64,000 bases of DNA, taken from IMG/VR virus record IMGVR_UViG_3300027804_000001, positions 32,001-96,000 of that record; one strand, 5' to 3'. The position numbers were made by a program, and so were the translations under genes. Source of the stretch: a virus (lineage: Duplodnaviria; Caudoviricetes). This document shows, piece after piece, positions 21,479 through 29,955 of this stretch (within the stretch, counting starts at the first letter, position 1; the number at the start of each line of letters is the position of its first letter). The notes under the pieces were generated by a model. That model worked only from the letters and a program-made list of their open reading frames with translations, made no database searches and was not told the DNA's origin.

Positions 21479-21544
21479 TGTTTTTAAGTTTTTTAGTTGT
21501 ATCACTAAAAACTTAAAACCTTACTCGGGTAAATTTTAAATTTC

Positions 21545-21570
21545 TAGGATACTTTTATTTATTTTGTTCA
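21545..21570. repeat. 26-bp direct repeat, right copy
   Basis: TAGGATACTTTTATTTATTTTGTTCA; matches 10341-10366. Confidence 0.8.
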
Positions 21571-21607
21571 TTTTATAAATATTTGAATAGTTGTTTAACG
21601 ATGTGAT

Positions 21608-21979
21608 TTAGTAGAGAATTTGCTTATTTTTTTCAAATATTTTGTATCCAAAGTCAATTCTTGTTTTAACTTGAGGTATTGAGAATTTTACAATTTCTTC
21701 TATCTCAATTATTAATTCGTTGTTTTCTCCTTTTAATTTTGAATTATCGTCGAAATATATATAACGATTTTTATCAAAATCTTTTCTCATTTTTTCATAT
21801 AAAACTTCATAATTTATTAATTCACAAACCATTTTTTCCATATGTAATAAATGAGGTGAAAGTTTTTTTAAAAGAAACGAGTTGTCAACTTTTTGTAGGT
21901 AGGCAAGTAAAACATATTGTTTTTGTTCAAAGTCAATCGGTGATTCCATATACCATGTAAGTGCTAGTTGATTCAACAT
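21608..21979 (-). CDS. Hypothetical protein
   Basis: 123-aa ORF. Confidence 0.75.
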   Translation of the reverse strand: MLNQLALTWYMESPIDFEQKQYVLLAYLQKVDNSFLLKKLSPHLLHMEKMVCELINYEVLYEKMRKDFDKNRYIYFDDNSKLKGENNELIIEIEEIVKFSIPQVKTRIDFGYKIFEKNKQILY

Positions 21980-22036
21980 TAAAATACTTTTTTATAAATA
22001 TTTTTAAATTTTCTTGTATTTTCATATACTTATTGT

Positions 22037-22044
22037 TATCTTTG
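22037..22044 (+). promoter_or_regulatory. Bacteroidota -7 element for tRNA unit 1
   Basis: TATCTTTG upstream of the leader ORF. Confidence 0.7.
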
Positions 22045-22069
22045 TTAGAGATTTAAATAAAAAAGTTCG

Positions 22070-22174
22070 ATGAAACAAGTAAAACATATTATGCACTCGT
22101 TTACAATCTGTTCAAAATGGGCGGATGAGCGTGTTATGCTTTTGTCTCGAACTGAAGATATTAATAAGGGCTAA
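22070..22174 (+). CDS. Attenuator leader peptide 1 (34 aa)
   Basis: MKQVKHIMHSFTICSKWADERVMLLSRTEDINKG; 3' part carries the antiterminator strand. Confidence 0.75.
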   Translation: MKQVKHIMHSFTICSKWADERVMLLSRTEDINKG

Positions 22175-22230
22175 ATAAAGATTGGCTTTAAATATTCAGA
22201 ACCTCGGGACAAAATCTCGGGGTTTTTTGT
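22140..22230 (+). promoter_or_regulatory. Transcription attenuator 1 (antiterminator/terminator)
   Basis: Terminator AACCTCGGGA/TCTCGGGGTT plus T tract (22200-22230); TTTTGTCTCGA (22140-22150) pairs with TCGGGACAAAA (22204-22214); CTGAA pairs with TTCAG. Confidence 0.8.
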
Positions 22231-22234
22231 TTTT

Positions 22235-22307
22235 GGGCCGGATGTCAATGGCAGACCACCTGATTTGCAATCAGAGTGAATGGGTTCGATTCCCAACGCG
22301 TCCACCA
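22235..22307 (+). tRNA. tRNA-Ala(TGC), atypical acceptor stem
   Basis: Anticodon loop TTTGCAA, G3:U70, encoded CCA; C:C and G:G mismatches at pairs 5-6. Confidence 0.7.
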
Positions 22308-22368
22308 ACCCCCGAGTTTAGGAGCTGGTATCTCCGTTTCTCGATATAACTGAAAAACTACCACACAT

Positions 22369-22441
22369 TCTTAGGTAGCTCAATGGTGAGAGCATCCGTC
22401 TGATACGCGGAAGGTTGATGGTTCGAGTCCATCTCTAAGAA
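22369..22441 (+). tRNA. tRNA-Ile(GAT)
   Basis: Full cloverleaf, loop CTGATAC. Confidence 0.92.
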
Positions 22442-22446
22442 CAATA

Positions 22447-22519
22447 GGAGATGAAGCTAACTTAGTAGAAGCGAAGGACTGAAAATCCTTAGGAGTTGGA
22501 GCGTAACCAACTATCTCCA
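22447..22519 (+). tRNA. tRNA-Phe(GAA), non-canonical T-loop
   Basis: AAGGA-CTGAAAA-TCCTT; T-loop AGCGTAA. Confidence 0.85.
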
Positions 22520-22524
22520 CAATT

Positions 22525-22598
22525 GACCTCTTAGCTCAGTTGGTTAGAGCACCTCACTTTTAATGAGGGAGTCCGCAGTTCGAGTCTGCGAGGGGTCA
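22525..22598 (+). tRNA. tRNA-Lys(TTT)
   Basis: Full cloverleaf, loop CTTTTAA. Confidence 0.95.
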
Positions 22599-22604
22599 CA
22601 ATAC

Positions 22605-22675
22605 ATGGGTGTGGTGCAATGGTAGCATTCCGGTCTCCAAAACCGTCGATGGGAGTTCGAATCTCTCCACCCGTG
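22605..22675 (+). tRNA. tRNA-Trp(CCA)
   Basis: Loop CTCCAAA, G73. Confidence 0.92.
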
Positions 22676-22693
22676 CAAAAATTAAATAAATGT

Positions 22694-22764
22694 GGTCTCA
22701 TAGTTTAATGGAAAAACGTCTCGCTACGGACGAGATGATTGGGGTTCGAATCCCTGTGAGACCT
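22694..22764 (+). tRNA. tRNA-Arg(ACG)
   Basis: TCTCG-CTACGGA-CGAGA. Confidence 0.92.
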
Positions 22765-22796
22765 CTGTTCATTGTTCGAGAACAAAGAACAAATAA

Positions 22797-22867
22797 GTCA
22801 GGTTGGCCGAGTGGTTAGGCTGAGGTCTGCAAAACCTCCTACATTGGTTCGAATCCAATACTTGACT
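22797..22867 (+). tRNA. tRNA-Cys(GCA)
   Basis: GAGGT-CTGCAAA-ACCTC, U73. Confidence 0.93.
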
Positions 22868-22869
22868 CT

Positions 22870-22945
22870 GTGATAGATGTTCGTATGGTAGAACCCAAGA
22901 TTGTGGCTCTTGGATTAGCGGGTTCGAATCCCGTCTATCACCCCA
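22870..22945 (+). tRNA. tRNA-His(GTG)
   Basis: Loop TTGTGGC; encoded G-1:C73. Confidence 0.9.
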
Positions 22946-22946
22946 T

Positions 22947-23018
22947 TGTGGGGAGGTTAGGTAACCCGTTTGGTCTCATAAGCCAGATATTCAGGTTCGA
23001 TTCCTGGCCCCGCAACCA
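22947..23018 (+). tRNA. tRNA-Met(CAT), probably elongator; short D-arm
   Basis: Loop CTCATAA, paired position 1:72, encoded CCA. Confidence 0.75.
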
Positions 23019-23059
23019 AAAAAAGATTAAAAATATTTTGTGATTTCACAATTTATTCT

Positions 23060-23067
23060 TATCTTTG
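23060..23067 (+). promoter_or_regulatory. Internal -7 promoter ahead of tRNA-fMet
   Basis: TATCTTTG; palindrome TTGTGATTTCACAA at 23038-23051 over the -33 region. Confidence 0.65.
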
Positions 23068-23077
23068 TAAAACAAAT

Positions 23078-23149
23078 CGCGAGATAGAGCAGCGGTAGCT
23101 CGGAAGGCTCATAACCTTTAGGTCGGGGGTTCGATTCCCTCTCTCGCAA
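23078..23149 (+). tRNA. tRNA-fMet(CAT)
   Basis: C1:A72 mismatch, loop CTCATAA. Confidence 0.88.
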
Positions 23150-23233
23150 CACTTGAGACTAACTCAACGAGGCTTTTGTCAACCAGAGCATGACTTGGAT
23201 GGTGCAGATTGAAGGTGGGTTAGAATCATTTTT

Positions 23234-23307
23234 GGTTTCTTGGTGTAGTGGCCTAACATGCCTCCCTGTCACGGAGGAGACCACGGGTTCGAATCCCGTA
23301 GGAACCG
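23234..23307 (+). tRNA. tRNA-Asp(GTC)
   Basis: CCTCC-CTGTCAC-GGAGG, G73. Confidence 0.95.
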
Positions 23308-23310
23308 CAA

Positions 23311-23472
23311 GTTGTTTCATACACTTAACACGCTTAGTAACAAAGCAAGGTACATAGAGTTACATAGAAGCATGGAGTGATTACCCGACGCTACATTCGG
23401 ACTACAAATGTGATTAGGTTCAGTCGTTGTAGAGAAAGAGATGTTAAGAGTAAACTTGCAAGTTGAAACAAC
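23311..23472 (+). ncRNA. Unidentified structured RNA between tRNA-Asp and tRNA-Ser
   Basis: Closing stems GTTGTTTCA/TGAAACAAC and CTTAACA/TGTTAAG, plus internal hairpins. Confidence 0.55.
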
Positions 23473-23476
23473 GATT

Positions 23477-23564
23477 GGAGAGATGGCAGAGTTGGCCGAT
23501 TGCGTCAGTCTTGAAAACTGAAGAACGGGAAACTGTTCCGTGGGTTCGAATCCTACTCTCTCCG
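23477..23564 (+). tRNA. tRNA-Ser(TGA)
   Basis: Long variable arm, loop CTTGAAA. Confidence 0.95.
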
Positions 23565-23569
23565 CACTT

Positions 23570-23641
23570 GCTCGGTTCGACTAGTGGTCAGGTCGCGTCC
23601 CTTTCACGGACGTAGCACGGGTTCGAATCCCGTACCGAGTA
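23570..23641 (+). tRNA. tRNA-Glu(TTC)
   Basis: CGTCC-CTTTCAC-GGACG. Confidence 0.95.
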
Positions 23642-23699
23642 CAAAAATTTTTTTATTATTTAAACTTTTTATATATTCACATATACTTATAAAACAGAG

Positions 23700-23804
23700 A
23701 TGAAGAATTTGAATAACATATCAACACTTAGTACGAGACCAGTTAATGGTAATGGGTATGGTGTGCAACCGTTATGTTACTCAAGTTCGGATTTCAAAAT
23801 GTAA
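23700..23804 (+). CDS. Attenuator leader peptide 2 (34 aa)
   Basis: MKNLNNISTLSTRPVNGNGYGVQPLCYSSSDFKM; 3' part carries the antiterminator strand. Confidence 0.75.
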   Translation: MKNLNNISTLSTRPVNGNGYGVQPLCYSSSDFKM

Positions 23805-23862
23805 GATTCAATCTACCTAAGATATCGAAACCCGAACTCAACAAAAAAGTTCGGGTTTTTTG
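23784..23862 (+). promoter_or_regulatory. Transcription attenuator 2 (antiterminator/terminator)
   Basis: Terminator AAACCCGAACT/AGTTCGGGTTT plus T tract; AGTTCGGATTTC (23784-23795) pairs 11/12 with GAAACCCGAACT (23827-23838). Confidence 0.82.
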
Positions 23863-23895
23863 TTTTAGTAATTTTTTATTCTTATATTTTATTAG

Positions 23896-23907
23896 GTTCT
23901 TTGACAT
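23896..23907 (+). promoter_or_regulatory. boxA-like antitermination element
   Basis: GTTCTTTGACAT just upstream of tRNA-Leu; recurs at 27150 and 29548. Confidence 0.55.
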
Positions 23908-23920
23908 TGTGGGAAAATTT

Positions 23921-24005
23921 GCCGAGGTGATGGAATGGTAGACATGACAGACTTAAAATCTGTTGGGACGAAAGTCCCGTGCGGGTTCGACTCCCGCTCT
24001 CGGTA
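23921..24005 (+). tRNA. tRNA-Leu(TAA)
   Basis: ACAGA-CTTAAAA-TCTGT, long variable arm. Confidence 0.95.
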
Positions 24006-24044
24006 CAAACACTATCGTTCTTTGGAAATAAAGGAGAAAATAAT

Positions 24045-24290
24045 ATGGATATATTATCATTTATTTTAGGAATGTCCGTTGTGGTGGTTATCGCGGTTGC
24101 GGTAGTTGCTGTAATGGCCTTTGTTAAGGTGAGAAAACATAACAAAGAAATTGATGAAATTCATCAAATAATCGGAAGAGAAATTGATGTACAAAACAGA
24201 GAGCGTGAAACAATTGTTCAAGACATATATCGAACACTAGATTCACGACTTGATAAACTTGAAAGTAAATTAAACAGCCGTAAGGCATAA
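24045..24290 (+). CDS. 81-aa single-TM coiled-coil protein inside the tRNA array
   Basis: Start refined to 24045 after AAGGAG; N-terminal hydrophobic helix; flanked by inverted repeats. Confidence 0.75.
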   Translation: MDILSFILGMSVVVVIAVAVVAVMAFVKVRKHNKEIDEIHQIIGREIDVQNRERETIVQDIYRTLDSRLDKLESKLNSRKA

Positions 24291-24329
24291 CAATTAAATA
24301 AAAAACTTTCAAAGACGATAGTGTTAATT

Positions 24330-24404
24330 GGTCTGATAGTTAAACGGATATAACAACTCTCTTCTAAAGAGTAATTCGTGGTTCGATTCCACGTCGGACT
24401 ACCA
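24330..24404 (+). tRNA. tRNA-Arg(TCT)
   Basis: ACTCT-CTTCTAA-AGAGT, encoded CCA. Confidence 0.93.
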
Positions 24405-24406
24405 TT

Positions 24407-24480
24407 CGGGATTTAGTACAGTCCGGTAGTATGCTTGGTTTGGGACCAAGAGGTCGTAGGTTCGAATCCTGCAATCCCGA
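24407..24480 (+). tRNA. tRNA-Pro(TGG)
   Basis: CTTGG-TTTGGGA-CCAAG. Confidence 0.95.
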
Positions 24481-24485
24481 CACTT

Positions 24486-24557
24486 GTCTTCTTAGCTCAG
24501 CGGTAGAGCATCTCGCTGTTAACGAGAGGGTCCAAGGTTCGAAACCTTGAGAGGACG
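24486..24557 (+). tRNA. tRNA-Asn(GTT)
   Basis: TCTCG-CTGTTAA-CGAGA, G73. Confidence 0.93.
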
Positions 24558-24563
24558 CAAATT

Positions 24564-24647
24564 GGCCGAGTGGTGGAATGGTAGACACGTTGGTCTTAGG
24601 AACCAATGTTGAAAAACGTGAGAGTTCGAATCTCTCCTTGGTCACCA
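24564..24647 (+). tRNA. tRNA-Leu(TAG)
   Basis: TTGGT-CTTAGGA-ACCAA, long variable arm, CCA. Confidence 0.95.
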
Positions 24648-24653
24648 ATAAAA

Positions 24654-24734
24654 TGGGGTATCGCATAGTGGCAATTGCGGGGGACTGTAAATCCCCTCTC
24701 ATTGAGTTCGGCGGTTCGAGTCCGTCTACCCCAA
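24654..24734 (+). tRNA. tRNA-Tyr(GTA)
   Basis: GGGGA-CTGTAAA-TCCCC, long variable arm. Confidence 0.92.
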
Positions 24735-24740
24735 CAAATT

Positions 24741-24814
24741 GGACTCGTAGCTCAGTTGGTCAGAGCAGGGCACTCATAATGCCAAGGTCGGGGGATCGTG
24801 ACCCTCCGGGTCCA
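24741..24814 (+). tRNA. tRNA(CAT), probably Ile2 (lysidine, reads ATA); non-canonical T-loop
   Basis: Loop CTCATAA, GGACTCG acceptor resembling Ile-type tRNAs, A73; T-loop ATCGTGA. Ile2 vs Met is inference. Confidence 0.7.
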
Positions 24815-24818
24815 CAAT

Positions 24819-24893
24819 AGAAGATTAGCTCAGAGGAAGAGCATTTGGTTTACATCCAAAGGGTCGGGATTTCAAAATTCTCATCTTCTACCA
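24819..24893 (+). tRNA. tRNA-Val(TAC), atypical T-arm
   Basis: TTTGG-TTTACAT-CCAAA; T-loop TTCAAAA; CCA. Confidence 0.85.
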
Positions 24894-24919
24894 AACTCGG
24901 AAGTAAAAACGAGACAAAT

Positions 24920-24995
24920 GCGGAAGTAGCTCATTAGGTAGAGCGTCTGCTTGCCAAGCAGAAGGTGGCCAGTTCGAGCCTGGTCTTCCGCTCCA
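24920..24995 (+). tRNA. tRNA-Gly(GCC)
   Basis: TCTGC-TTGCCAA-GCAGA, U73, CCA. Confidence 0.95.
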
Positions 24996-24998
24996 CAA

Positions 24999-25072
24999 GC
25001 TTCCTTAGCTCAGCAGGCCAGAGCACGTGATTTGTAATCTCGGGGTCGTCAGTTCGATTCTGACAGGAAGCT
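24999..25072 (+). tRNA. tRNA-Thr(TGT)
   Basis: Loop TTTGTAA. Confidence 0.92.
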
Positions 25073-25130
25073 CAAAAGGACTTTAATGGTTGAAGTACAA
25101 AACTGACGTAGGTTAGTCCCACCTACAAAT

Positions 25131-25202
25131 GCAGATGTCGTATAATGGCTATTACTCCATCCTTCCAAGTTGGAGACGAAGGTTCGATTCCTTTCATCTG
25201 CT
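25131..25202 (+). tRNA. tRNA-Gly(TCC)
   Basis: Loop CTTCCAA, U73. Confidence 0.92.
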
Positions 25203-25265
25203 CAATCATCAAAGAGACCGCTAAATCGAGTTAGTGAAAATCTACATTCTCAATGATGATTATTC

Positions 25266-25336
25266 TGTCCTTTAGTATAACGGTAGTACAGGTGGTTTTG
25301 GTCCATCTAGTTGGGGTTCGAATCCCTGAGGGACAA
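25266..25336 (+). tRNA. tRNA-Gln(TTG)
   Basis: GGTGG-TTTTGGT-CCATC, U1-A72. Confidence 0.92.
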
Positions 25337-25337
25337 C

Positions 25338-25577
25338 ATGGAATTAATAGCATACATAGGTGGAATATTACTTACAATTTGTGGTATACCTGAAGTCATT
25401 AGAACAATTAAAGATAAACGATGTCACTTAGGGTGGCCATTTTTATTATTATGGTTTTTTGGTGAGGTGTTTATGTTAATATATTCGGTTGATTTAAAAA
25501 GTTATCCATTAATAATGAATTATCTTTTTAATACCATTATTGTTGGGGTTATGTTATATTATAAAATAAAAAAATAA
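25338..25577 (+). CDS. PQ-loop / SemiSWEET-like 3-TM transporter
   Basis: Start refined to MELIAYIGG; ICGIPEVIRTIK PQ-loop-like motif, three TM helices, conserved N in TM3. Confidence 0.65.
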   Translation: MELIAYIGGILLTICGIPEVIRTIKDKRCHLGWPFLLLWFFGEVFMLIYSVDLKSYPLIMNYLFNTIIVGVMLYYKIKK

Positions 25578-25590
25578 AATAAAATAAACT

Positions 25591-25890
25591 ATGTGGTTAT
25601 ATGTCTTAGTATTTTTCTTTCAAGTTTTATTCAATGTTTTTAAAACTATGGAGATAAAATACACTTATGAGAATAAAGTTAAACAACTTGTGTTTAATTC
25701 GGTATGGATAAATCTTGTATCATTAGGTTCAACTTATTTTGCACTTGATAGATTATTTGCCAAAGATTGGACGGTTATTATTGTTTATATAAGTGGTAGT
25801 GTTTTTGGTAAATGGTGGGCAATGACACACTTTGTAAATTATGAAAATAAATTTTACGAATTTTTAAATAAAAGAAAAACAAAAAAATAA
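25591..25890 (+). CDS. Small multi-TM protein (DUF5698/UPF0316-like)
   Basis: Three hydrophobic segments, YISGSVFGKW-type motif. Confidence 0.5.
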   Translation: MWLYVLVFFFQVLFNVFKTMEIKYTYENKVKQLVFNSVWINLVSLGSTYFALDRLFAKDWTVIIVYISGSVFGKWWAMTHFVNYENKFYEFLNKRKTKK

Positions 25891-25893
25891 AAT

Positions 25894-26127
25894 ATGTATT
25901 TAACATTTCACATTATCTGTATCATTTATTGTATGTATCAACTAATAAAAAAATACAATAAATTATCAAATCCCGGTATGATTGGTGTATCTCCTGGTTT
26001 AGAGACCATTATGGTCATTGTATTAGCTCCTGCACTTGCAATTGTTGATGTATCATTAACATGGATTCGTTGGTATAAAGAAGCCGAAGAAGCTAGAAGA
26101 AGAAATGACGAAAGAAAAATTTTTTAG
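25894..26127 (+). CDS. Small membrane protein
   Basis: 77 aa; stop codon abuts tRNA-Ser. Confidence 0.65.
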   Translation: MYLTFHIICIIYCMYQLIKKYNKLSNPGMIGVSPGLETIMVIVLAPALAIVDVSLTWIRWYKEAEEARRRNDERKIF

Positions 26128-26212
26128 GAGAGTTACCCAAGTTGGTGAAGGGGGCAGTTTGCTAAACTGTTAGGGTGTTAAAGCCGCGAGGGTTCGAGCC
26201 CCTCACTCTCCG
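26127..26212 (+). tRNA. tRNA-Ser(GCT)
   Basis: GCAGT-TTGCTAA-ACTGT, long variable arm, G73. Confidence 0.93.
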
Positions 26213-26217
26213 CAAAT

Positions 26218-26387
26218 TGTAGTGTGTTGAAAAACGATTGACACGCGTGTCAATCTGGCAGACAAGCCCTCCTGTCTCGGGGGTGTGGATAACGAAATAG
26301 ATTGGTAATATGGGGTAGACCACCATCCTGCAGGAATGTGTTATCAATTGAATCGCCTCGTGGATGGTTCGAATCCTCCCACTACAG
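26218..26387 (+). ncRNA. 170-nt expanded tRNA-Asp(GTC)-like RNA
   Basis: Acceptor TGTAGTG/CACTACA + G73; anticodon arm CCCTC-CTGTCTC-GGGGG; GGTTCGAATCC T-loop; hairpin insertions in D-loop and variable region. Confidence 0.7.
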
Positions 26388-26415
26388 CTAAAATAATTAT
26401 AGTAAATGAAATGAA

Positions 26416-26877
26416 ATGAAACAATTTAGAACTCTCTATGGGACAAATATTCCTAACTTGATTGAGTATGTTAGAGAATACATCTCAACAAGAGAGAACG
26501 TAGAAATTCTCATCGGATCTGACTCACAATGTTATGGAAATAAGAAAACCATTTATGGTGTTGTAATAGCATTATATACACCAGGGAAAGGTGCACATGT
26601 TTTATGTACTCGTGAGACAACTTCGATGGAATATAATACACCATCTAGATTGTTAAATGAGGTTTGGAAATCTATTGAAATTGCGGAATGGTTAAAAGAA
26701 AATGGATTACCTAAACCTACATGGATTGATATTGATTTAAATCCTGACCCAAAGTATAAATCTAATTCCGTATTAAGACAGGCAGTTGGTTTAGTCGAGG
26801 GTATGGGATATAAAGTTAGGTATAAACACTTAGGTGCGTTAACAACATATGCTGCTAATCATTTAGTACGTATTTAA
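26416..26877 (+). CDS. YkuK-like RNase H-fold protein (DUF458)
   Basis: ILIGSDSQ, RLLNEVWKSIEIA, IDIDLNPD, AANHL motifs. Confidence 0.75.
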   Translation: MKQFRTLYGTNIPNLIEYVREYISTRENVEILIGSDSQCYGNKKTIYGVVIALYTPGKGAHVLCTRETTSMEYNTPSRLLNEVWKSIEIAEWLKENGLPKPTWIDIDLNPDPKYKSNSVLRQAVGLVEGMGYKVRYKHLGALTTYAANHLVRI

Positions 26878-27134: not shown

Positions 27135-27970
27135 AATCGGAAACGATAAGTTCTTTGACTAAAAATATTGGCCGCCTATGGTCATTAAATAAACTGTGAA
27201 AGCAGTATAAAGTGAATCTGAATTAGTTATTCAGGTTTGCGGTTTCAGAAATGGAACTTGAGTAGGCAAGCGGGATATCATCGAACCTTAAGTACTGAGG
27301 GTGACACTTTAGGGAAAGTGGTTTGGTGACCAAGCGATACCGGTCGTTTGGTTGAGGTGGGAACACCAATAAGAATAACTCGTAGAATTATTGTAAAAAG
27401 TATGGTCTCCAACTATACAATTGCGTGATTCAATACAATGGGAATCTTAAAACCGAAAGGTATGGTGATGTACAGGTGGTGCTGTTATTATCCTTGATTT
27501 GAATCTACCAAGATTCTTATCTCGAAGGGGTCCAAAAGTATGGAGGTAGGGATATCTCAGAGGGTAGTTTAGTATCGTGTTGTTCAAAAGATGACATGTC
27601 TGGTGACGAGCCACTACCTTCCAAATCGGTAACTAAAATCATTTTGTTAATTTTGGTTTAACAAACTTAAATACAAAAGGAAAAGTGCTCGTCAGTCGTT
27701 AGAGACAGGTGACTACATAGTCGTGAGGGGTTCACGGCCACAAAGGGTCCCAAGCCCAATGTGAATTGTAAGAAAGTTCTCTAGTCCCGCAAGGATTAAT
27801 CGGGGTGGCAACCTCGAAGAGTAATGAGTAAGATGAGAGTATCTAATGACTTAAGGATTGGTTAATCTAATTGACCGTCACTGGTTGGTACAGTTCAAAA
27901 GACTGTGGATAAGAAAGGAAACAATAATCTTTCTAAAGTCAACTACTAAAACTTGTAATCTCAGAGTTTT
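27135..27970 (+). ncRNA. Large structured ncRNA, GOLLD-like
   Basis: About 830 nt without a credible ORF, GC-richer than flanks, many hairpins (ACC-GAAA-GGT, GGGGT-GGCAA-CCTC, CAGT-TCAAAAG-ACTG), ends ..TGTAATCTCAG..; size and tRNA-adjacent phage context fit GOLLD; family call from memory, not a model search. Confidence 0.65.
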
Positions 27971-28100: not shown

Positions 28101-28856
28101 ATGAGAATTGTTTGTATATCTGATACACATAGTCTCCATAAAAATATGGAGAAATATGGACCATTACCCGAAGGTGATGTATTAATACATGCGGGTGATT
28201 GTACAAACAAAGGAGAAAAACGTGATGTAGAAGAATTTGTTCATTGGTTTATGAACATAAAAGGATTTGATTCTAAAATTTTTATTGCCGGTAATCACGA
28301 TTTTGCATTTGAAGAACATAGATATCCACATCATAAAGGTGAATACGATTGGTTTCATCATTTAATGACACCTGAAAATTTATCACAATCAGATGTTGTG
28401 TATCTTGAAGATAGTGAGTTCATAATTGAATCACCTGAATTTAATAGACCAATAAAATTTTATGGATCGCCTTGGCAACCGGAGTTTTATAATTGGGCAT
28501 TTAATTTACCAAGACTTGGTGAAGATTTAAAAAGATATTGGTCAATGATTCCTGATGATACTGATGTATTAATTACCCACGGACCACCTAATGAAGCGAG
28601 GGATTTTGTAAATAATTGGAGACAAGGTAGTATTAATGTTGGGTGTGAATTATTACGTCATCGTGTAGATGAAATAAAACCTTTGTTACATGTGTTTGGT
28701 CACATTCACGGAGGTTATGGTGGTGCTTATATTAAAGACACTCTTTTTGTTAATGCATCAATTTGTACAGAACAATACATACCATCAAATAAACCCATTG
28801 TAATTGAATTAAAAGAATTCGATGGAAATATAGAAGCAATTTATGTCGAAGAATAA
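28101..28856 (+). CDS. Calcineurin-like metallophosphoesterase (MPPED/Rv0805-like)
   Basis: ISDTH, HAGD, AGNHD, THGPP, FGHIH. Confidence 0.9.
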   Translation: MRIVCISDTHSLHKNMEKYGPLPEGDVLIHAGDCTNKGEKRDVEEFVHWFMNIKGFDSKIFIAGNHDFAFEEHRYPHHKGEYDWFHHLMTPENLSQSDVVYLEDSEFIIESPEFNRPIKFYGSPWQPEFYNWAFNLPRLGEDLKRYWSMIPDDTDVLITHGPPNEARDFVNNWRQGSINVGCELLRHRVDEIKPLLHVFGHIHGGYGGAYIKDTLFVNASICTEQYIPSNKPIVIELKEFDGNIEAIYVEE

Positions 28857-29561: not shown

Positions 29562-29955
29562 GGGGGTGTCTGGTATTGATTGGCGTTAATATGATAGGTG
29601 GGCACGTAGTCGGATGTCATCTACGACTTTAATCAACGGTGGTAAAATTCAAACGGCAACGTTTACAACAAAATGGAAGCTTGCGGATTAATTGCAACTT
29701 CTAACGTAGCAGTAGCCTAAGGCGAGACTACATTCGGGTCGGTTAGGACATTAACCTAGGAACAGAAGTCCAATATACGGGTCACAGGTCAGAGCTCGTT
29801 TAAAATAATTCTGAGACCAGGTTGTTTATAGGTTGGTTTCCCACATACATCAAACCTAATATTTCGGAACATTGAGAAACAATGTTGTAATAAACGTGTA
29901 GTCCATTTATGGTATTGCGAGCAAGACACGGGTTCGACTCCCGTCACCTCCACCA
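29562..29955 (+). ncRNA. ssrA: tmRNA
   Basis: Ala acceptor GGGGGTG/CACCTCC-ACCA with G3:U70, T-arm GGTTCGACTCC; tag ORF 29655-29720 GNVYNKMEACGLIATSNVAVA*. Confidence 0.93.

Follow-up and report, generated by a model that had tools for sequence, protein, structure and literature searches.

The DNA immediately upstream of a block of 13 phage tRNA genes probably encodes a ribosome-mediated leader-peptide attenuator, here called attenuator 1, whose sensing codons are read by the very tRNAs that it controls. The anatomy of the element, its competing helices, the match between leader codons and tRNA genes, and the co-variation of the two across phages were all observed computationally. The element lies in a 64,000-nucleotide stretch of viral DNA (the whole of which was analyzed and is referred to as the window) from a large, AT-rich phage genome (31% G+C). 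The window holds 25 tRNA genes detected by ARAGORN, together with a GOLLD RNA and a tmRNA, and the promoter, leader ORFs, pairing strands, terminators, and tRNA blocks located below are all on its plus strand.

The leader of tRNA block 1 and its competing helices

Block 1 (22235–23642) comprises the genes for Ala(TGC), Ile(GAT), Phe, Lys, Trp, Arg(ACG), Cys, His, two tRNAs with a CAT anticodon, Asp, Ser(TGA), and Glu. Ahead of it we found a promoter of the Bacteroidota type (22014–22044), with TTG at 22014–22016, a 20-nt spacer, and, at 22037–22044, TATCTTTG, which fits TAnnTTTG; a −33/−7 consensus consisting of TTG and TAnnTTTG is established for promoters of Bacteroidota. The TAnnTTTG box and the upstream TTG recur at the same place in relatives, with TTT replacing TTG in one group. 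Transcription of this first unit would likely start near 22050, and an A-rich 5′ leader lies between the promoter and leader ORF 1 (22070–22174), which has 34 codons plus a TAA stop. The type of promoter, which is the sole basis for assigning a host, suggests a freshwater member of the Bacteroidota. At the downstream end of the unit, the U run of a predicted terminator ends at 22234 and tRNA-Ala starts directly after it, at 22235. This arrangement leaves no space for a promoter between the two, so transcription can enter block 1 only through the terminator. The tRNA-Ala(TGC) gene is itself a weak call, scoring 29.7 bits with Rfam and detected by ARAGORN at 90% thresholds only.

The promoters of this leader and of a second leader in the window have the sequence ATACTTAT in common (22026–22033 and 23683–23690), and it is conserved in relatives (L002–L021). 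Its position differs between the two: in unit 1 the −33 and −7 boxes flank it, and in unit 2 it is downstream of the TAnnTTTG box. The sequence was not enriched within the window (9 occurrences versus 5.6 expected), and might serve as an operator common to both units or as a second element of the promoter.

The original prediction held that the leader has a complete 1:2 / 2:3 / 3:4 architecture, and all three pairings were indeed present, with coordinates that checked against the sequence. The last of them is the predicted intrinsic terminator (22198–22234), for which a terminator scan called a hairpin at 22198–22226 with 12 pairs and a 5-nt loop (CAAAA), followed by TTGTTTTTGG; the U run, TTTTTTGTTTTT, extends to 22234. 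Strand 3 (22195–22214) comprises the 5′ arm and loop of this terminator and doubles as the 3′ strand of the antiterminator. Its partner in the antiterminator is strand 2 (22139–22157, codons 24–29), within which TTTTGTCTCGA (22140–22150, codons 24–27) forms 11 antiparallel pairs, one of them G-U, with TCGGGACAAAA (22204–22214), as had been claimed. The proposed extension of this helix through CTGAA and TTCAG also pairs, joining 22152–22156 to 22195–22199, one base off the extension that had been implied. Strand 2 can pair instead, through 22145–22153, with strand 1 (22064–22073), the 5′ strand of an anti-antiterminator, which overlaps the start codon and was recovered both in the MFE structure and in a duplex test. 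In this third pairing, which had likewise been foreseen, AGTTCGA (22064–22070, overlapping the A of the ATG) pairs with TCGAACT (22147–22153).

Comparison with shuffled sequences set these structures apart. The whole leader folded at −50.3 kcal/mol, versus −34.7 kcal/mol for its shuffled counterparts (z −4.15), and none of 200 shuffles folded as well. Its MFE structure consisted of exactly the 1:2 hairpin (22064–22073 with 22145–22153) and the terminator. When the duplexes were evaluated separately, 1:2 reached −13.0 kcal/mol versus −5.6 kcal/mol for shuffles (z −4.0, p 0.005), and 2:3 reached −16.6 kcal/mol versus −10.0 kcal/mol (p 0.011). In a transcript cut before the 3′ arm of the terminator, 22139–22157 paired with 22195–22214, which is the 2:3 state.

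Leader codons and tRNA genes in the window and in other phages

Codons 2–21 of leader 1 include at least one codon cognate to every anticodon species encoded in block 1 (12/12), with one or two codons per tRNA. Under a null based on the codon usage of the window, the same number of codons covered a mean of 5.6–6.0 species, and none of 100,000 draws reached 12 (P < 1e-5); for the whole leader ORF, a test that involves no chosen boundary, the coverage P was 2–3e-4. The sampled set is completed by the Arg codon CGT at codon 21 (22130–22132), the sole codon in 2–21 for tRNA-Arg(ACG), in agreement with the original prediction. Block 1 reads 17 of the 20 sensing codons, versus the 9–10 expected, and the remaining three (CAA, GTA, and ACA), which are read by block-2 tRNAs, count against the proposed reading.

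The second unit of the window has leader ORF 2 (23700–23804), which also has 34 codons and is unrelated in sequence to leader 1. Strand 2 of attenuator 2 (23783–23796) has an AGTTCGG core at codons 29–31, and terminator 2 (23828–23867) consists of AAACCCGAAC, an 11-nt loop, GTTCGGGTTT, and then a U run. Behind it lies block 2 (23921–26213), with genes for Leu(TAA), Arg(TCT), Pro, Asn, Leu(TAG), Tyr, a CAT tRNA (possibly Ile2), Val, Gly(GCC), Thr, Gly(TCC), Gln, and Ser(GCT), and with small ORFs scattered within the block. Codons 2–25 of leader 2 cover 13 of the 13 block-2 species on the assumption that U34 decodes entire four-codon boxes and that ATA is read by the third CAT tRNA of the window; stricter rules give 12 of 13, with P ranging from 2e-4 to 2e-3. 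The isoacceptors are split between the two units, such that leader 1 has CGT and TCG/TCA where its block has Arg(ACG) and Ser(TGA), and leader 2 has AGA and AGT where its block has Arg(TCT) and Ser(GCT). Similarly, ATT and ATC accompany Ile(GAT), and of the two leaders of the window only leader 2 contains ATA.

The three CAT tRNAs of the window are of three distinct types. The first (22947–23018) is distinguished by an odd, short D arm and by a CCA that is encoded in the gene, and the second (23078–23150) has a C1-A72 mismatch, which probably marks it as an initiator. The third (24741–24815) is invariably found after tRNA-Tyr, and the leader ahead of it contains ATA codons, which suggests that it may be tRNA-Ile2. 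Alignment placed it in a distinct, conserved type. Its matches in GenBank phages carried mixed labels (Ile2 versus elongator Met), and its E. coli matches, which were to the D-arm region only, were labelled tRNA-Met; the coverage statistics are accordingly given both ways for the identity of this tRNA.

Several other features were observed in and around the tRNA array. Between tRNA-Asp and tRNA-Ser(TGA) is a 168-nt gap (23309–23476), in which all four metatranscriptome runs yielded comparatively deep contigs at 23309–23457, some of them mismatch-free. The gap had no Rfam match and folded no better than shuffles (z −0.9), and the covered segment could represent either a stable spacer or a small RNA of an unknown kind. 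Between Leu(TAA) and Arg(TCT) lies an ORF of 81 aa (24045–24290) that encodes one hydrophobic helix, is covered by RNA contigs, and had no Pfam match; a terminator-like hairpin call (24076–24117) falls inside it. Just downstream of the array are the full-length GOLLD RNA (322 bits) and the phage tmRNA (tag ATSNVAVA), at 27560–27967 and 29562–29955, and in the same region are genes for an RNase H-like protein (PF04308; 26416–26877) and a metallophosphoesterase (28101–28856).

Searching 21500–24500 against GenBank phages with blastn returned only tRNA-level matches and no close relative. The related sequences that we found were giant viral contigs of 270–324 kb and freshwater metagenome contigs. 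A terminator-1 core of about 19–21 nt was identical in 9 IMG/VR and 15 metagenome contigs, and all 24 had an ORF of 31–34 codons at the same place, with a tRNA block behind it. The indels that distinguish these leader ORFs occur in multiples of three only, which points to translation of the ORF. When leaders and blocks were shuffled, the shuffled pairs never beat the real pairing (183 own-read codons versus a mean of 141 for shuffled pairs, P = 2e-5), and within codons 2–22, the sensing window of leader 1, the block species were fully covered in 10 of 12 lineages.

Individual lineages illustrate how leader and block change together. In the L004 type, in which tRNA-Thr has been gained and Asp and Ser are absent, the leader has four Thr codons and, within codons 2–22, no Asp codon and no TCN Ser codon; the L004 block itself decodes 20 of those 21 codons. 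The block of the L005 type contains Cys, Trp, His, Thr, Glu, Asp, and Arg(TCT) only; the corresponding leader has lost its Phe, Ala, and CGT codons, as well as Ile codons in codons 2–22, and has six Thr codons. The L010 block encodes Pro, Asn, Trp, Gln, Met, Arg, Thr, Tyr, Asp, Ser, and Glu; to match it, the leader has been rewritten, with Pro, Asn, Gln, Tyr, and ATA codons added. Counting against a perfect rule is the L013 type (L013, L017, L022, and L024), in which the Ala, Ile, Phe, and Lys tRNA genes were lost from block 1 and the leader, with two substitutions only, keeps its Phe, Ile, Lys, and Ala codons. We read this mismatch as a likely case of recent loss with evolutionary lag; alternatively, these codons might now report on host tRNAs. 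A separate observation concerns L011, L014, and L018, which have an identical leader peptide, with both His and Gln codons, and differ in the third slot of the block (~190 nt past the terminator), which is occupied by tRNA-Gln(TTG), an unrelated tRNA-His(GTG), and a decayed His-like sequence, respectively.

The pairings were retained along with the codons. All 14 distinct leader-1 sequences keep 1:2, 2:3 (strand 2, at codons 24–28, with the terminator arm), and the terminator, as determined from per-sequence folds, the register of 1:2 differing between lineages; strand 3 is invariant by the way in which the relatives were found, which was through their shared terminator. The 1:2 helix is built in four ways, as AGUUCGA:UCGAACU (the solution in the window), GAGACA:UGUCUC, GAAAC:GUUUC, or GAACU:AGUUC with its G-U variant GGUUC. 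The residues encoded over strand 2 vary (MLLSR, MSICL, and MSRGF) while complementarity to the arm is kept, which points to selection on the RNA. The identity of the terminator core across strongly diverged leaders exceeds what a plain hairpin would need and could reflect an extra protein or RNA partner.

The stem of terminator 2 extended the comparison to other phages. This stem (ACCCGAAC, 4–14 nt, GTTCGGGTTTTTT) occurred in 107 viral contigs, 86 of which have at least three tRNA genes right behind it, and nearly all contigs with the stem carry a 22–42-codon ORF in front. Among IMG/VR loci (L025–L128), the ACCCGAAC...GTTCGGGT stem precedes tRNA arrays behind very different leaders, and the antiterminator/terminator core of the unit-2 type behaves like a portable module. 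In cellular genomes (L129–L248), only 2 of 120 matches to the stem had a tRNA nearby, never with a leader, and no host counterpart was found in this way. The AGTTCGG strand forces leader C-termini such as SSG, SSD, and CSD. The leader peptides are otherwise highly diverse and visibly mirror their tRNA cargo, as exemplified by a leader starting MRFNNNNQQQYQQNNY that precedes Asn, Asn, Asn, Gln, and Tyr. Over 31 non-redundant viral units, a unit's own block reads 70% of leader codons 2–22, versus 43% under shuffled pairing (z 9.2), and a leader samples 89% of its own block species, versus 56% (z 8.9). In 25 of 31 loci, the leader also ranked first among the local small ORFs, with 856 ORFs serving as controls. 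Pairing between the start region and strand 2 beat shuffles in 13 of 33 units (Fisher P 3e-9), indicating that start-region pairing of the 1:2 type is common but not universal.

Ribosome position, proposed mechanism, and alternative explanations

Equilibrium folding of the full transcript with a ribosome mask favored the terminator in nearly every state, which made it unfit for a kinetic switch, and we replaced it with models that used truncated transcripts and allowed no helix to span the ribosome. Because the terminator wins at equilibrium in nearly all states, the decision must be kinetic, as it is in trp, and the attenuator model would depend on kinetics that are only approximated here. 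In a co-transcriptional MFE series for the untranslated leader, the 1:2 hairpin was complete with RNA polymerase at about 22165 and stayed the MFE structure until the 3′ arm of the terminator emerged. In the absence of a ribosome, the 2:3 state was better by only 2.4 kcal/mol, and this for a few nucleotides of transcription. We estimated the barrier from 1:2 to 2:3 at ~10.6 kcal/mol, such that the default path to the terminator would be kinetically protected; afterwards the terminator state wins at −43 kcal/mol. The modeled untranslated leader thus ends in the terminator state, as had been anticipated.

With a ribosome on the leader, the no-spanning-helix model gave a probability of 0.96–0.99 that strand 2 holds the terminator 5′ arm when the A site is at codons 1–22. 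From codon 23 to the stop this probability was at most 0.36, because the ribosome either covers strand 2 (codons 23–32) or, at the stop, sits between strands 2 and 3. The modeled sensing window of leader 1 ends one codon past CGT (21), the codon that completes the sampling, and that of leader 2 spans codons 1–25. The nearest-neighbor model lets 1:2 re-form around a mid-ORF ribosome, which is physically doubtful. With strand 1 at the start codon and the whole sensing window inside the 1:2 loop, stalls anywhere along 60 nt should be readable.

From these results we infer translation of the leader, read-through as the consequence of stalling, and a shortage of tRNA as the physiological signal. 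Transcription would begin from the host-type promoter near 22050, and a ribosome would load at the ATG at 22070 while the polymerase was still on the leader. If any of the 12 tRNA species were scarce or uncharged, this ribosome would stall within codons 2–22, and a stalled or queued ribosome would keep strand 1 off strand 2. The freed strand 2 (22139–22157) would capture 22195–22214 as it emerged, allowing read-through into the genes from tRNA-Ala to tRNA-Glu. When decoding was fast, the ribosome would reach strand 2 (codons 23–32) or the stop codon between strands 2 and 3, and the terminator would form; when there was no translation, the preformed 1:2 hairpin would also lead to the terminator. 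This three-state logic, in which both the untranslated and the fully translated leader terminate and a stalled ribosome permits read-through, was part of the original prediction; it follows from the anatomy, holds in the comparisons, and is supported at the level of modeling. Its greatest support comes from a result beyond the original prediction, the way in which leader codons follow the tRNA genes behind them from one relative to the next. The tRNA products would relieve the stall, thereby closing a negative-feedback loop on tRNA supply, and unit 2 (23700–23867) would do the same for the other 13 tRNAs. The phage thus probably makes its tRNA set only when ribosomes decode the leader codons slowly. 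On balance, we also favor a broader proposal, in which many phages, of Bacteroidota and of other hosts, carry such an element as a portable, re-writable 'codon test strip' and express their tRNA arrays on demand when the host tRNA pool fails. Such failure might occur, for example, after host shut-off or anticodon-nuclease cleavage.

The same switch might instead answer to amino-acid starvation or general translation stress, with tRNA output being tuned to the translational state of the host. A stall looks the same whether a tRNA is missing or uncharged, and classical attenuators, such as those of trp and his, respond to tRNA charging. Moreover, the sampling of 12 species would suit a general gauge of elongation speed. 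A general gauge, however, need not track the block, yet leader codons change with the gain and loss of tRNA genes, and the two leaders of the window split the code in the way that the two blocks do. Nor does extra tRNA cure amino-acid starvation. We therefore regard starvation or stress as an unlikely signal for a switch that otherwise would be the same.

Improbable to a further degree is a post-transcriptional role, in which translation of the mini-ORF controls the processing or stability of the tRNA precursor, for instance through nuclease access, and the hairpin is a processing or protective element. The hairpin does adjoin the site at which RNase P must generate the 5′ end of tRNA-Ala, and its invariance across diverged relatives would suit a recognition site. 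Nonetheless, a GC stem followed by TTTTTTGTTTTT is the canonical form of an intrinsic terminator, and the 2:3 helix targets exactly the 5′ arm, which is a hallmark of terminator/antiterminator control. The metatranscriptome, which consisted of assembled contigs only, hardly covered the leader, and one RNA contig (23744–23891) crossed terminator 2, a point in favor of such a role, although this contig also fits read-through and could be DNA carry-over.

We see very little likelihood that a protein or other factor acts in trans to decide the outcome at the hairpin, by factor-dependent antitermination, with the mini-ORF being minor or separate. The perfect conservation of the terminator core, the occurrence of the terminator-2 stem behind very different leaders, and the presence of ATACTTAT in both promoters would each suit such a factor, but no candidate for it was identified, and its action would leave unexplained both the mirroring of tRNA genes by leader codons and the complementarity of strand 2 that persists despite changing residues. 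Least credible of all is coincidence, whereby an ordinary small phage gene (or no gene) with its own terminator happens to lie ahead of tRNAs with which it has no connection: small ORFs are abundant in AT-rich DNA (127 ORFs of at least 20 aa in 8 kb), but the coverage of block 1 (P < 1e-5), the co-variation (P = 2e-5), the z of about 9 over 31 units, the first rank of the leader in 25 of 31 loci against 856 control ORFs, and the conservation of ORF length and frame all speak against it.

Significance and comparison with known attenuators

Phage tRNA arrays are usually discussed as constitutive codon-usage supplements or as a counter to tRNA-targeting defenses. An attenuator that reads the codons of its own cargo would give phages a demand-driven supply of tRNA. 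If our interpretation is true, tRNA genes would for the first time be known to come under an attenuator, and a single attenuator would for the first time be known to sense a dozen tRNA species simultaneously. The trp mechanism would thereby reach a new gene class and gain about 12-fold multivalency, with each codon of the sensing window being a separate input. Leaders could also help to annotate tRNAs of doubtful identity, as illustrated by the ATA codons that occur only in leaders before the third type of CAT tRNA, and the element would offer synthetic biology a programmable, ready-made means of sensing decoding speed.

The leader-peptide attenuator that we propose resembles trpL, hisL, leuL, pheL, and pheM of pheST in having a short leader ORF, mutually exclusive 1:2, 2:3, and 3:4 helices, and a terminator before the first regulated gene. 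In leaders of the trpL type, a stall at hungry codons causes read-through and is in turn relieved by what the operon produces, and our model would have the same occur here. The features by which trp- and his-type leaders are recognized were all found, namely a conserved short ORF, a predicted terminator directly upstream of the regulated genes, competing helices, and regulatory codons that match the product; judged at the level of sequence, the element is a trp-type attenuator in everything except the kind of gene regulated. Leaders of the trpL type regulate enzymes or a synthetase, whereas the cargo here is 13 tRNA genes and includes neither amino-acid-biosynthesis nor synthetase genes. Also unlike the trpL type, the leader has no run of a single codon and instead offers one or two codons for each of ~12 tRNA species, its strand 1 is at the start codon, its 21-codon sensing window is inside the 1:2 loop, its stop codon falls between strands 2 and 3, and it is borne by a phage.

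Sensing of several amino acids or tRNAs by one leader has precedents in the ilvGMEDA leader (Ile, Val, and Leu) and the thr leader (Thr and Ile). Those leaders sense two or three amino acids through clustered, repeated codons, whereas the leader described here samples a dozen species about once each, and, in further contrast, its codon set is rewritten when the cargo changes. In the T-box riboswitch, too, whether a terminator is read through depends on the state of a particular tRNA, but the riboswitch binds the tRNA directly by a specifier codon, without a ribosome, whereas the element here has an ORF and no T-box match. The Rfam leader families (Trp, His, Leu, Thr, and others) and the T-box (RF00230) gave no match at the gathering score in the window, nor any at E values up to 1 in 21900–26500. 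In the full-text literature that was searched, attenuators before tRNA genes or phage tRNA arrays were not described, which is no proof of novelty, with many subscription papers lying outside that coverage. Among known systems, the element is most aptly classed as an attenuator of tRNA genes that is multivalent and matched to its cargo.
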